Source of the DNA: a virus
Virus record (IMG/VR): IMGVR_UViG_3300027667_000001
Span: 1-39,123 of that record
Strand: one strand, 5' to 3'
Length of the DNA: 39,123 nucleotides
The translations under genes were made by a program, and so were the position numbers. How positions within the stretch are numbered: position 1 is the first letter of the stretch; the number at the start of each line of letters is the position of its first letter. Shown here one piece after another: positions 34,788 to 37,340 of this stretch. Under the pieces are notes generated by a model that had not been told where the DNA came from, searched no databases, and was given only the letters and a program-made list of their open reading frames with translations.

Positions 34788-35711
34788 ATGCCATTAAATC
34801 AAGCTTTACGAAAAAATAGTAATGTCCTTTGGACAATCAGCGTCATCCAAGACCAAAACCCCGAAGCGCAAACCAAAGCTGAATTTTCAGAAATGACCAA
34901 TGACGTCGTTAATACGCCAAATGTTGAAAATCTAACCCTATGCCTAGCCGATAATCTCCAACGTTTCAGGTTAATGATTCAATACGGTATTAGCGAAGAA
35001 GACGCTATTTCAGAGTGCCAAAAGTTAAGTTCCCAATGGAATATCGACAATTTTGAATCCGTAGAATCCTTAAAGAAATCCAAAAACTTTTCTGTTTTAA
35101 CGTGGAAAGAATTTTTAGATTGGCCTAATAAAGACAAGACCATTTCAGATATTGAAAAACTATACGAGGGTAAGCCAGAGTTTAAAGTTGATGTAGACAC
35201 CAGAATTAGACAGGTTAGAGATTCTCTAAAGAATCCAAAAATTTCTGATACTTTAGAACAAACAACACTTTTACGAAAATATTTAATTGAAGAATTGGCA
35301 TTCCAAAAATTTTGTGCCTCTAAGGGATTTAATTATGAGATATATAAAACTCAATGTTGCAAAGCTATGCGACGTATAAAGAATAATACTGACTTTGTTC
35401 CTACTGGTTTAATGAGAGAAATGTTTTTTACGCAATTTAATCAAACCGTAAAAAACAATTCAGAAACAAATCAATCCATTATCAGAGCCGAAAAAGAATC
35501 CTTTTCATCAGTCTTTAACAAAAAACCTTATCAGTCTACTGCAAATAATGGCGCTTCAATGTCTATCAAGTTCGCAGAATTTATTGAAAAAACGCTTCAG
35601 ATGGTACCGGTACAAGAACAAGAAAGAGCAGTTGACGCATTAATGAAATTTACTGCGCAAGAGATTCTACCATTGTGTTACTCAAATAAATCTAACACCC
35701 TGAAAATATAA
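34788..35711 (+). CDS. Hypothetical protein (307 aa), upstream of and co-oriented with the hybrid kinase
   Basis: ORF track, with AAAGGAG upstream. No family was recognised. Confidence 0.6.
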   Translation: MPLNQALRKNSNVLWTISVIQDQNPEAQTKAEFSEMTNDVVNTPNVENLTLCLADNLQRFRLMIQYGISEEDAISECQKLSSQWNIDNFESVESLKKSKNFSVLTWKEFLDWPNKDKTISDIEKLYEGKPEFKVDVDTRIRQVRDSLKNPKISDTLEQTTLLRKYLIEELAFQKFCASKGFNYEIYKTQCCKAMRRIKNNTDFVPTGLMREMFFTQFNQTVKNNSETNQSIIRAEKESFSSVFNKKPYQSTANNGASMSIKFAEFIEKTLQMVPVQEQERAVDALMKFTAQEILPLCYSNKSNTLKI

Positions 35712-35723
35712 TTATTTATTCTC

Positions 35724-37340
35724 ATGAAACATAAAATTTATTCCAATAAAACCTTTCAAGTCAAAGCTAAAGATGTTGCGTTAGAGGCTTTATTTAATTT
35801 ATTTCCTATCAATTTTTCTTGGGTTGATAAAAGTGGATTTTTTTTAGGTTGTAATCAAGAATTGATACACTGTCTCGATGTTCAATCATTCGATAATATT
35901 GTAGGAAAACATTTAACTAATTTTTCCCATAAACCTGTATGGGAAAATACAAAAAAAGTTATAGAAACGGGAGAGTCATTTATAGGGGAAGAAATCCACT
36001 TTAGAGAAGATGGCTCTAAAATTTATTTTTTGAGCATGAAAAATCCAATAAAAGATTGTGAAGATAACATAATAGGAGTTGTTAATATTGCGTTAGATAT
36101 TACGGAGCGTAAATCAATGGAAATGAATTTAAGGCAATTAAAAGAAGCGGCAGAATTGTCAGACAAAGTTAAAACGGAATTTTTAACCAATATGCGACAT
36201 GATTTAAAAACTCCGCTTAGTGGAATCGTCACCATATCAGAATTTTTAGAAAATTCTGAAACAGAATTTACTAAAAAAAATTATCTGCACGATATTAAAC
36301 AATGCGCTGAATCCATATTAAACCATCTTAATGAAATCTTAGACCACATAAAAACAGAAAGCGGCGAATTTACCATTGCAGAAAAAGAATTTGATATTCA
36401 CACTGTCTTACAAGATATCTATCGTATGATGTTGCCGTCTGCAAGTTCTAAGCACCTAGATTTTACACTTACACTTGATAACATACCGCCTAATTTTATA
36501 GGCGATGTAGCAAGAACTGAGCGTATTCTTATTAATATCATTGCAAATTCGATTAAATTTACCGAAAAAGGGTTTGTGAAAATTATCGCAAACTGGTTTC
36601 CCTCATCGAGTGAAAAAGGCTTGCTGCAATTTATCATTGAAGATACCGGTATAGGTATACCAGAAAATAAAAAGGATATAATTTTTGAAAAATTTATTCG
36701 CTTACATCCGTCTTATGAAGGGGTTTATACAGGAAGCGGATTAGGTCTTAATATCGTCAAACAATTTATAGAAGAGCTTGGCGGAAAATATGAGTTACAA
36801 ACTACATTAGGAAAAGGTACTCTATTTAAGGTTACTATTCCTTATAAAGTACCTGTCATAAAAGTAAGCTATTCTGAAAACTCAAGTACTACTTCCGTGT
36901 CAATTCAACGTGAAAACTTAAGTACTACTTCTGTTCCTATTCCGCATAAAAACTTAAGCACGACAGGCGAGTTAAATTCTATCTTTAATAAGCACAAGGT
37001 TTTATTGGTGGAAGATAATCAGATCATCTCCCGCATATCAAAAGACCTTTTGGAATCACTAAATTGTACAGTGGATATTGCCCCTGATGGAAAAACAGCC
37101 CTTGAGTTAGTTGATGAATTCTATTACGACCTTATCCTCATGGATATTGGGTTACCTGATATAGATGGCTATAAAGTCACTCAGGATATCCGTACATGCG
37201 ACATTACAACGCCTATTATTGCTATAACCGCTCATACTGAAGACGAAGAAAGGCAAAAATGCATTGAAGTAGGGATGAATGAGATGATTACGAAGCCATT
37301 AACGCAAGAAATAGCCAAATCTATTATTTCCAAACTGTAG
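35724..37340 (+). CDS. Cytoplasmic hybrid sensor histidine kinase / response regulator (PAS-HisKA-HATPase_c-REC)
   Basis: PAS-like N-terminus ending ..GVVNIALDITERK. H-box FLTNMRHDLKTPL, N-box INIIANSIKFT, G1 EDTGIGIP and G2 GSGLGLNIVK. The REC domain has VLLVEDN...LILMDIGLPDIDG...TKPL. No TM segment. Confidence 0.9.
   Translation: MKHKIYSNKTFQVKAKDVALEALFNLFPINFSWVDKSGFFLGCNQELIHCLDVQSFDNIVGKHLTNFSHKPVWENTKKVIETGESFIGEEIHFREDGSKIYFLSMKNPIKDCEDNIIGVVNIALDITERKSMEMNLRQLKEAAELSDKVKTEFLTNMRHDLKTPLSGIVTISEFLENSETEFTKKNYLHDIKQCAESILNHLNEILDHIKTESGEFTIAEKEFDIHTVLQDIYRMMLPSASSKHLDFTLTLDNIPPNFIGDVARTERILINIIANSIKFTEKGFVKIIANWFPSSSEKGLLQFIIEDTGIGIPENKKDIIFEKFIRLHPSYEGVYTGSGLGLNIVKQFIEELGGKYELQTTLGKGTLFKVTIPYKVPVIKVSYSENSSTTSVSIQRENLSTTSVPIPHKNLSTTGELNSIFNKHKVLLVEDNQIISRISKDLLESLNCTVDIAPDGKTALELVDEFYYDLILMDIGLPDIDGYKVTQDIRTCDITTPIIAITAHTEDEERQKCIEVGMNEMITKPLTQEIAKSIISKL
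36876..36971 (+). repeat. In-frame 36-nt tandem repeat (2.6 copies) in the kinase-REC linker
   Basis: ENSSTTSVSIQR / ENLSTTSVPIPH / KNLSTTGE.., read directly at the DNA level. Confidence 0.85.

Follow-up and report, generated by a model that had tools for sequence, protein, structure and literature searches.

A cyclodipeptide synthase paired with a soluble hybrid sensor kinase in a phage genome, and candidate links of the pair to CsrA

Introduction

The life-cycle switch of Legionella is governed by LetS/LetA, which drives expression of the small RNAs (sRNAs) RsmX, RsmY and RsmZ, and these in turn sequester CsrA (PMC5338858, PMC5780407); the Legionella Lqs pathway is itself wired to CsrA (PMC5338858). 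In the corresponding Gac/Rsm network, LadS, a hybrid kinase without an HPt domain, relays to the HPt domain of GacS, then to GacA and finally to rsmY and rsmZ (PMC4866733). Paralogues of csrA can also be mobile, i.e. CsrT is found on Legionella integrative and conjugative elements, and csrA occurs in about 1.2% of phage genomes (PMC7366521). Here we analyse a viral DNA of 39,123 nucleotides (IMG/VR record IMGVR_UViG_3300027667_000001, positions 1 to 39,123; 'the window' below always means this whole stretch), in which two adjoining genes at 34788-37340 encode a protein of 307 amino acids (aa) and a soluble hybrid histidine kinase of 538 aa, together with the csrA gene of this phage and a GGA-rich RNA element next to the kinase gene.

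Our data indicate that the 307-aa protein is a tRNA-dependent cyclodipeptide synthase (CDPS), and we propose, with a probability of roughly 40%, that these components belong to an integrated phage circuit consisting of a signal synthase, a sensor kinase, a sponge sRNA and CsrA, which makes use of a response regulator of the host. Every part of this circuit is of a known kind, and for the phage-borne combination we found no report; nor did we find literature on CDPSs of phages, on the pairing of a CDPS with a kinase or on Rsm-like sRNAs in phages, which does not exclude that such work exists. In what follows, L and P numbers designate individual loci and proteins, and all coordinates are collected in table 1.

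Results

The 307-aa partner of the kinase

The 307-aa protein is almost certainly a divergent CDPS, i.e. a member of a class of enzymes whose substrates are aminoacyl-tRNAs (PMC5816076). A sequence search of the PDB with this protein returned the CDPS of Rickettsiella grylli (5mlp) at E 2.9e-7, and a profile made from 40 family members retrieved 5mlp, 5ocd and 5mlq at about 1e-11. The AlphaFold2 model (pLDDT 82.6) has the predicted Rossmann-like fold related to class-Ic aminoacyl-tRNA synthetases, and its Foldseek matches in the PDB were exclusively CDPSs at ranks 1-49, with the enzyme of Fluoribacter dumoffii (5ocd) as the best (E 4e-11, TM 0.77-0.80) and TyrRS appearing first at rank 50. Homologues of the 307-aa protein number 63, several with PF16715 and some named 'tRNA-dependent cyclodipeptide synthase' by JGI, and an exhaustive profile search produced a graded series leading from the phage family to canonical CDPSs of 230-250 aa.

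An alignment bridging this series places S18 (in LWTIS) on the serine of the canonical ISVGQ motif. This residue is invariant in the bridging alignment (42/42) as well as in that of the family (40/40), and so is Y186 (42/42 in the bridging alignment); Y165 and E168/E169 are invariant too and align, together with Y186, to YLLEE and (I/V)Y of 5mlp, 5mlq and 5ocd. YLxEE (Y165, E169) and ADxLQR are motifs common to the phage family and canonical CDPSs. The AlbC equivalents of the catalytic residues are S37, Y178, E182 and Y202. The position after Y186 is occupied by an invariant Lys in the phage family, by M, R, L or P in the intermediates and by P in the canonical relatives.

Overall similarity is highest to the XYP CDPSs of Legionellales (5OCD, 5MLP and the 'cAA' group of Legionellaceae; PMC5816076), with which the phage enzyme shares the fold, the catalytic residues and the ISVGQ, ADxLQR and YLxEE motifs, whereas it is only 18-23% identical to them, has the Lys after Tyr186, is phage-encoded and is always followed by a sensor kinase. 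The protein is laid out as a catalytic core (residues ~1-220), a disordered and variable linker (221-255) and a C-terminal helical hairpin (255-297), which is kept in the family and folded with confidence in the model; an extra C-terminal domain is also known from Legionellaceae XYP CDPSs (PMC5816076), so that the 'cAA' enzymes and the phage enzyme have this trait in common. There is no hydrophobic segment (maximal Kyte-Doolittle mean over 19 residues, 0.73).

Pfam gave no match to the 307-aa protein at the gathering level, nor at E<=10; scores of its relatives for PF16715 range from 15.6 to 29.3 bits around the cut-off of 27, with one protein passing (P0156, 29.3 bits), and TIGR04539 reached 28.3 bits with the 307-aa protein against a cut-off of 45. 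PHROGs held nothing for this protein, and no CDPS homologue was found in INPHARED phages. Since UniProt/BFVD already holds a labelled family member ('Cyclodileucine synthase [uncultured Caudovirales phage]', 42% identity, E 7e-33), the enzyme class is known rather than new. A first-pass annotation of the window, made from its letters and open reading frames (ORFs), had called this partner of the kinase novel and unassignable; this description gives way to that of a CDPS on the joint evidence of PDB sequence matches, profile, fold and bridging alignment, and relatives have been auto-annotated in this sense by JGI and UniProt.

A cellular CDPS-like relative, P0185 (L011 3897-6957; E 3e-56 to the family profile), is encoded directly after a U-box/Ank-repeat gene, with an integrase nearby and no kinase in the locus; this arrangement suggests that, in cellular genomes, this branch of CDPSs is associated with effector-like islands.

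The soluble hybrid sensor kinase

Pfam assigns to the 538-aa protein the domains PAS_4 (30-130, 6.5e-7; the entire PAS domain extends over about 20-132), HisKA (150-208, 1e-12), HATPase_c (260-374, 5.5e-21) and Response_reg (426-529, 9.9e-28). H159 is found within NMRHDLKTP, followed by the N-box (N271/N275), the G1 box DTGIGI (307, D307-G311) and the G2 box GSGLGL (337, G337-G341), and the residues E430-D431, D474 (LILMDIGLPDIDG), T502 and K524 of the receiver domain (REC) are intact. These catalytic and receiver motifs are kept across all phage homologues, among which the residues of the PAS domain match the catalytic boxes in their degree of conservation. Neither a membrane segment (maximal 19-residue Kyte-Doolittle mean, 0.96) nor a Pfam match to Hpt was found in the kinase, which stops 9 residues past REC; having neither an HPt nor an output domain, it must find its partners in trans.

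Thus, the presence of two ORFs (307 and 538 aa, 12 nt apart) at the place given in the first-pass annotation, the complete PAS-HisKA-HATPase-REC order with intact catalytic boxes and receiver Asp, the absence of membrane segment and HPt, and the divergent orientation of the co-directional pair relative to the late genes, which point the opposite way on the - strand across 186 bp, are all borne out. Its further statement that the kinase must plug into host phosphorelays is plausible in so far as partners are needed in trans, but is too strict, since other options exist and many relatives have no REC or have it as a separate gene. Its assignment of the kinase to a GacS/LetS type, by contrast, fails: with 184 bits for the NCBIfam model of LetS (cut-off 1650) and 264 bits for that of BarA (cut-off 890), the protein scores far under equivalog cut-offs and has no transmembrane or HAMP segment and no HPt, so that orthology to LetS, GacS, BarA or ArcB is ruled out.

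Among cellular proteins, the kinase is most closely related to soluble PAS-HK-REC-HPt kinases from Legionella and Rickettsiella (36-44% identity). In a neighbour-joining tree the phage kinases form one clade that adjoins these cellular HPt-bearing hybrids, which suggests that the kinase was captured from a host PAS-HK-REC-HPt gene and then lost its HPt and, in many relatives, also its REC. The receiver is either fused (as in the window, 515-543 aa), encoded by a separate gene of 138 aa, or absent (kinases of 371-396 aa), and REC-less kinases occur at more than one place within the phage clade. Among INPHARED phages, kinases are at most 30% identical.

P0048 (43% identity, with HPt; L007 497-2850 and 8001-10427) is the nearest cellular homologue of the kinase. 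Genes for a P22_Cro-like protein, CsrA and an S24-peptidase repressor are found at a distance of about 6 kb from its gene, which leucine-rich-repeat and F-box genes adjoin; this region may represent the border of a mobile element near the type of gene captured by the phage.

Conservation and history of the gene pair

Relatives of the two proteins (44-97% identity for the CDPS, 40-91% for the kinase) are encoded on contigs of 34-41 kb, which also encode a portal of the P22 type, a small terminase of the Sf6 type, a P22_Cro-like regulator and YqaJ/RecT/SSB as well as Ank proteins, a Legionella-MOMP homologue and CsrA. Relatives do keep the two genes together: the CDPS gene precedes the kinase gene in every family locus with enough sequence, at a spacing of 3-46 nt. 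One lineage (L006 11242-12297; also ENA ERZ1426846) has a 351-aa gene inserted between the two, whose product has no Pfam match and no similarity to CDPSs, and a separate 138-aa receiver gene after the kinase. To the right of the pair, the neighbour varies by lineage and may be SSB/RecT, small terminase or csrA. When IMG/VR was queried separately with the CDPS and with the kinase, the identical 11 contigs were recovered and no genome with only one of the two was found; the next-best viral kinases there are at most 35% identical. Conservation of the pair in all relatives also rules out a recent, pseudogenising capture. On the cellular side, the nearest kinases (on a metagenome-assembled genome (MAG) contig and in L. 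sainthelensi) have no CDPS neighbour, and two uncharacterised neighbours of cellular kinases that were considered as CDPS candidates were rejected by HH comparison; the cellular CDPS-like relatives examined have no kinase neighbour and adjoin U-box/Ank effector-like genes.

Across 34 CDPS-kinase pairs the pairwise identities of the two proteins correlate (r = 0.65; Mantel 0/2000). A comparison of the window with L009 (6001-8626), however, splits the CDPS in two: the catalytic domains are 87% identical, whereas identity drops to 47% in the C-terminal domain and to 43%, 38% and 43% in the PAS, DHp and CA domains of the kinase, respectively. A recombination breakpoint must therefore lie in the CDPS linker (residues ~221-255), with the C-terminal domain of the CDPS being inherited along with the kinase, and the pair was thus reassembled from different lineages and yet kept together, although its two genes have separate histories. 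We consider it likely that the CDPS-kinase pair is a functional unit. Co-evolution of the CDPS C-terminal domain with the kinase beyond mere linkage was dropped as an explanation, as the correlations are equal (0.62, 0.63) without the single recombinant lineage. Joint decay of both genes in L025 (IMGVR_UViG_3300047567_000024) was also rejected, because portal and terminase genes are frameshifted there as well, which marks these splits as assembly noise.

The csrA gene and the GGA-rich RNA element

The product of the phage csrA gene matches Pfam CsrA at 3.7e-22 and the NCBIfam equivalog NF002469 with 82.6 bits (cut-off 73), and has kept the equivalents of the RNA-binding residues L2, L4, R6, R7 and R44 of E. 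coli CsrA; by these measures it is a bona fide CsrA, and the gene noted at 4936-5121 in the first-pass annotation is real. In L009, L010, L014 and L016/17, csrA starts at most 2 nt from the kinase stop codon or overlaps it; in six further loci it is located 1-3 kb downstream of the kinase on the same strand, and it is present in most related loci with enough flanking sequence.

A second connection to Csr comes from an RNA element. Scanning for GGA motifs showed that, on the + strand of the window, A(N)GGA(U/C) sites cluster most densely in the 157-nt gap just past the kinase, i.e. intergenically between the stop codons of the kinase (37340) and SSB (37498) genes. The GGA motifs are at 37389, 37413, 37429, 37449 and 37463, with the third in the hairpin CGCCGA-AGGA-UCGGCG (37422-37437), and the predicted fold of the element has a minimum free energy of -35.2 kcal/mol (z = -3.0). 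Ten homologous copies are known, i.e. that of the window and those of nine relatives, where the element comes right after the CDPS-kinase module (L001, L003, L006, L015, L019, L023) or right after csrA (L004, L020, L022). All ten copies contain 4-6 GGA motifs per ~100 nt, mostly (A/U)GGAU, several being AUGGA rather than strict ARGGA. By its GGA density the element ranks in the top 0.2-5% of windows per locus, for the most part near 1%; by that of GGAU, it ranks in the top 0.1-0.8% in each locus.

The structure, too, is supported by covariation. A 16-bp helix joins the 5' and 3' ends of the element and finishes in a U-run (GGGUUUU(U)C), which belongs to the helix itself rather than coming after a short hairpin of its own. 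Compensatory changes affect 10/16 of the terminal pairs and 3/6 of the hairpin pairs, and 92% of cells are paired, as compared with 79 +/- 2% in shuffles (0/500 as high) and 34-52% in slid registers. Hairpins with an (A/U)GGA tetraloop recur among the copies with different stems (CGCCGA-AGGA-UCGGCG, CGUCGA-UGGA-UCGACG, GCGUA-AGGA-UACGC, UUCA-UGGA-UGAA), and most of the remaining GGA motifs are predicted to be in the unpaired interior. A covariance model scored 73-93 bits on eight copies, which are its own training set, so that these scores are expected by construction; independent evidence is that nothing comparable was found in 25 unrelated viral or three cellular loci. A small conserved peptide encoded across the element was rejected as an alternative, since there is no conserved ORF.

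Upstream of the element, a promoter-like sequence with 10/12 matches (CAGACA-17-TATAAT) has a perfect -10 hexamer, and a -35 element xAGACA, a 17-nt spacer and a -10 element TAnnnT are kept in all ten copies. The -35 element as well as the kinase stop codon (37338-37340) is overlapped by a palindrome, TGTAGC-ACTTAT-CCTACA, which has its centre near -42 relative to the predicted RNA start and has no other match in the genome at <=1 mismatch. The full palindrome, TGTAG(G/C/T)-N6/7-CCTACA with 18-19 nt, is present in five of the ten copies (window, L004, L022, L020 and L003), while the others (including L001, L015 and L023) have the right half-site only, overlapping the -35 element. The version in L004 and L022, TGTAGG-ATAATC-CCTACA, is one symmetric change away from the UvrY/GacA box TGTAAG-N6-CTTACA (PMC4682653).

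Kulkarni et al. 2006 (PMC1488887) used five criteria for sRNAs of this type: intergenic location, AGGA/ARGGA density, a Rho-independent terminator, GGA in loops and an upstream 18-bp UvrY/GacA-type site. Location, motif density and GGA in loops are all found in the element, which is probably, if with a little less assurance than we attach to the gene pair as a unit, a CsrA-binding sRNA. The link to a CsrA cascade that the first-pass annotation had guessed at therefore gains genomic support from the position of csrA at the 3' end of the kinase gene and from the sRNA candidate downstream of it, whereas the analogy to LetS on which it was built was wrong; in sum, the earlier observation is confirmed and its interpretation partly supported.

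GGA motifs are also present in the 5' leader of the CDPS gene. In the window (34715-34787) there are three, at about -60, -41 and -13, the last within the Shine-Dalgarno sequence AAAGGAG; they have counterparts at similar positions in 10 relatives (including L001, L003, L004, L006, L015, L019, L020, L022 and L023), mostly at about -60, -40 and -12 in an A(A/U)GGGAUU context. These motifs could be candidate CsrA sites. Their enrichment in the window leader is only in the top ~2%, and the leader folds differ between lineages, with some forming an anti-Shine-Dalgarno hairpin (z down to -3.8). Promoter-like sites in the leader region (34651-34680 and 34682-34711) are not above chance in number.

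Genome, host and lifestyle

Table 1. Positions of the features discussed, in the window and, for the GGA-rich element, in related loci.
Feature	Position	Strand	Remarks
CsrA	4936-5136	-	likely start ATG (MLILGRR...), giving 4936-5121
Small serine recombinase (resolvase/invertase type)	8641-9246	-	
MOMP homologue (PF05150)	10857-11693	-	
Portal, P22-type	29428-31560	-	
TerL	31544-33094	-	
Ank-repeat protein with N-terminal coiled coil	33116-33904	-	262 aa
Coiled-coil protein	33912-34601	-	229 aa
Divergent intergenic region, promoter and 5' leader of the CDPS-kinase operon	34602-34787	+	186 bp
CDPS gene	34788-35711	+	307-aa ORF
Hybrid kinase gene	35724-37340	+	538-aa ORF; 12 nt after the CDPS gene
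UvrY/GacA-box-like inverted repeat	37336-37353	+	18 nt
Sigma-70-like promoter	37352-37380	+	CAGACA, 17-nt spacer, TATAAT
Candidate RsmY/Z-like CsrA-sponge sRNA	37385-37488	+	~100 nt; five GGA motifs, predicted fold
Element copy, L001	12566-12669		
Element copy, L003	12215-12311		
Element copy, L004	13821-13917		
Element copy, L006	~14018-14156		
Element copy, L015	4184-4286		
Element copy, L019	~9722-9860		
Element copy, L020	10972-11068		
Element copy, L022	10619-10715		
Element copy, L023	9559-9660		

The first 99 nt of the window are repeated exactly at its end (1-99 = 39025-39123), which marks it as a complete genome of ~39,024 bp, either circularly closed or terminally redundant. The cassette region forms a patch of 30% GC in a genome otherwise at 36-44%. 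The Ank and coiled-coil genes between TerL and the cassette have the same low GC content (30%) and are eukaryote-like; Ank proteins of 336-460 aa, reminiscent of Dot/Icm effectors, are encoded at the same position in relatives. No tRNA genes were found in the window, and PADLOC assigned no defence system, with generic domain-level matches to REC and Ank only (E ~1e-5).

These phages are P22-like with genomes of ~37-40 kb, and their hosts are probably Legionella-like, i.e. Legionellales-type bacteria, as we infer from the MOMP homologue, the Ank-repeat genes, CsrA and the taxonomic position of the closest homologues of kinase and CDPS. The MOMP homologue (PF05150, E 2.4e-42) is found family-wide on related phage-sized contigs, with its closest cellular relatives on large MAG contigs (41-42% identical) and only 27% identity to Lpg1974 of L. 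pneumophila. Besides being an indicator of the host, it is possibly a gene for lysogenic conversion or exclusion. Labels such as those of L006 (contig CAISKH010000264.1) and of the proteins P0026 and P0174, which come from MAGs, are probably due to mis-binning and would mislead host assignment.

With respect to lifestyle, there is no integrase in the window, which encodes a small serine recombinase and an Xre-type helix-turn-helix protein. The window has no toxin-antitoxin pair, and in two relatives, L104 (11958-13583) and L105 (6991-8616), a ParE toxin with its antitoxin adjoins the recombinase. A scan of genome contigs gave a single phage-like MAG contig, probably mis-binned, and no prophage in 185,579 species genomes. 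The recombinase, the lack of an integrase, the ParE pair in relatives and the absence of prophages together suggest a non-integrating lifestyle, as a plasmid-like prophage or strictly lytic phage. Among INPHARED phages, portals are only 22-24% identical.

Discussion

Compared with the Gac/Rsm network, i.e. LadS/RetS-GacS-GacA-RsmY/Z-RsmA and LetS/LetA-RsmX/Y/Z-CsrA, the phage locus features a similar GGA-rich sRNA candidate of ~100 nt, an 18-nt palindrome upstream of it that resembles TGTAAG-N6-CTTACA, and CsrA; its kinase is, like LadS and RetS, a hybrid without an HPt domain, and the parts are near one another in a single neighbourhood. It differs in that its parts are coupled to a CDPS and are all phage-borne; that the kinase is soluble with a PAS input rather than membrane-bound, and is not orthologous to LetS, GacS, LadS or RetS; that the cassette encodes no response regulator and its candidate sRNA has no Rfam Rsm/Csr match; and that the palindrome overlaps the -35 element rather than being far upstream. 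Adjoining genes for a small-molecule synthase and a sensor histidine kinase are also found in LqsA/LqsS-LqsT-LqsR and CqsA/CqsS, where the synthase is, however, an acyltransferase dependent on pyridoxal phosphate and the receptor is in the membrane, whereas the phage has a tRNA-dependent CDPS, a cytoplasmic PAS receptor and no cognate regulator, with the tie between signal and receptor being drawn by analogy. Among phages, arbitrium (AimP/AimR/aimX) and VqmA of VP882 are likewise sensing modules, and the predicted output of the cassette would include a non-coding RNA (cf. aimX) and may report on the density of infected cells; unlike these modules, the cassette has no peptide and no AimR-type or transcription-factor receptor but would rely on a two-component kinase that reads a cyclodipeptide of enzymatic origin, and a tie to the lysis-lysogeny decision is only a proposal here. 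Finally, mobile csrA paralogues resemble the phage gene in their intact RNA-binding residues, while the candidate cognate sponge sRNA and the kinase-CDPS module alongside csrA are an association that we did not find reported.

In the circuit that we propose, the CDPS would turn two aminoacyl-tRNAs of the host into a small membrane-permeant cyclodipeptide, and the cytoplasmic PAS domain would sense this cyclodipeptide (or a linked metabolite) and set the activity of the kinase. This sensing step is suggested by the adjacency of synthase and receptor genes as in LqsA/LqsS and CqsA/CqsS, and because a cytoplasmic sensor suits a permeant ligand. Phosphoryl groups would leave via REC to an HPt domain of the host, that of LetS or of a kinase of the parental PAS type, on a route similar to that from LadS to GacS. 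A host regulator of the LetA/GacA type would then bind the palindrome and drive the phage sRNA, which would titrate host and phage CsrA and thereby toggle the replicative and transmissive programmes as well as any phage genes repressed by CsrA. Every part of this circuit would thus be owned by the phage, with the exception of the DNA-binding regulator.

A number of observations weigh against this proposal. All members of the family are metagenomic and the evidence is computational, and the cyclodipeptide as PAS ligand comes from analogy. The CDPS scores under the Pfam and TIGRFAM cut-offs and has, with Y-K, neither the NYH nor the XYP subfamily signature. Much of the adjacency of the two genes could be a matter of common descent, as it is seen in one phage clade. 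As the receiver is dispensable in many relatives, the route from REC to an HPt domain cannot be universal. As to the RNA, no match to RsmY, RsmZ, CsrB or CsrC was found in Rfam (E<=1 for the whole window, E<=10 for 37330-37520), and the element was not detected in the lineage in which csrA is fused to the kinase, where the sensitivity of the model is limited (the divergent copies of L006 and L019 score 11-15 bits); being located between convergent genes, the element could double as a terminator or merely be one. The palindrome, which is full in only five of ten copies and placed over the -35 element, was compared with the UvrY/GacA box (PMC4682653), and might be the target of another regulator or no more than a 3' stem-loop. 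The host taxon is derived indirectly, and the MAG labels of family contigs are in conflict ('Waddliaceae bacterium', 'Mucilaginibacter sp.').

What would the pair do if synthase and sensor were not tied to each other? CDPS and kinase may be co-transcribed cargo, with the cyclodipeptide acting outward as a metabolite or towards the protist host or microbial competitors, and with the kinase independently rewiring two-component signalling of the host, so that merely a shared promoter and common ancestry keep the genes together. Aravind and colleagues have suggested a role in host-cell manipulation for the CDPSs of Legionella, Rickettsiella and chlamydiae (PMC2922099), the cellular CDPS-like relatives adjoin effector-like U-box/Ank genes with no kinase near, the cassette sits in a low-GC (30%) 'moron' patch with Ank and coiled-coil genes, and linkage within one phage clade is not independent evidence; all this fits this reading. 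Nevertheless, the pair has survived rearrangement of its right flank, gain or loss of REC, insertion of the 351-aa gene and recombination between the CDPS catalytic domain and the kinase, no genome was found to have one partner alone, and a cytoplasmic PAS sensor is well suited to a membrane-permeant small ligand, which makes unconnected cargo unlikely, if still an explanation to be taken seriously. A more indirect effect of the enzyme has less in its favour: CDPSs use aminoacyl-tRNAs (PMC5816076), and in L. pneumophila starvation for amino acids and ppGpp switch on LetA/S and the Rsm sRNAs (PMC5338858, PMC5780407), so that the CDPS might drain aminoacyl-tRNAs, with uncharged tRNA acting via RelA/ppGpp and LetS/LetA on RsmXYZ to have CsrA sequestered, and kinase and sRNA reinforcing the same switch. 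The physical link of the cassette to Csr components would agree with this, yet characterised CDPSs are slow enzymes of secondary metabolism for which depletion of tRNA pools is unsupported, and the strongly conserved PAS domain and strict pairing with a sensor kinase would be left unexplained; we regard such a drain as improbable.

Doubt may also start from the RNA. If the GGA-rich element were a structured terminator or 3'-UTR between convergent genes, the Csr link would be coincidental and the cassette would comprise just CDPS and kinase. Indeed, the element is always at a convergent gene junction, the U-run of its terminal helix pairs with an A-run as in bidirectional terminators, and Rfam as well as the csrA-fused lineage turned up nothing; but a terminator does not look like a 16-bp helix around ~65 nt in which there are hairpins with (A/U)GGA loops, the promoter immediately upstream has conserved -35 and -10 elements, GGAU density is in the top 0.1-0.8% in every locus even though the DNA is AT-rich, the element travels with csrA (three lineages) or with the kinase module (six), and it shares location, motif density and GGA in loops with the sRNAs described in PMC1488887. 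A mere terminator therefore appears somewhat less plausible still than unconnected cargo, though clearly more so than a tRNA drain. The version of the first-pass annotation, a hybrid kinase with an accessory protein of unassigned type at one end of a LetS-type cascade, had the domain architecture and the presence of csrA right, but with a CDPS as the partner, and a kinase that fails the LetS, BarA and ArcB cut-offs and is devoid of transmembrane/HAMP segments and HPt, it is hardly tenable any longer.

The integrated circuit could also be extended beyond the single cell. A diffusible cyclodipeptide would accumulate with the density of infected or lysogenic cells and would be read by the PAS kinase, with output via the LetA-type regulator and the sRNA to CsrA, i.e. 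the phage would communicate. We consider this extension speculative and rather unlikely at present; if it were true, the phage would time lysis, persistence or host differentiation inside protist hosts, and the cassette would represent, for Gram-negative phages, a counterpart of arbitrium that works without a peptide and through a two-component kinase, as well as the first Gac/Rsm-type cascade encoded by a phage.

If the integrated circuit itself exists, this would be the first phage that both makes and senses a non-ribosomal small molecule via a two-component kinase, and the first one to combine a CsrA-sponge sRNA with a CsrA of its own, giving it control over the master post-transcriptional switch of Legionella-type pathogens. 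It would also assign a signalling role and a candidate receptor to the poorly understood XYP CDPSs of intracellular bacteria, and would open a first view into the biology of Legionellales phages, of which there are almost no isolates. Even if the data are read conservatively, these phages share the cassette as a trait that is strictly conserved throughout the family.

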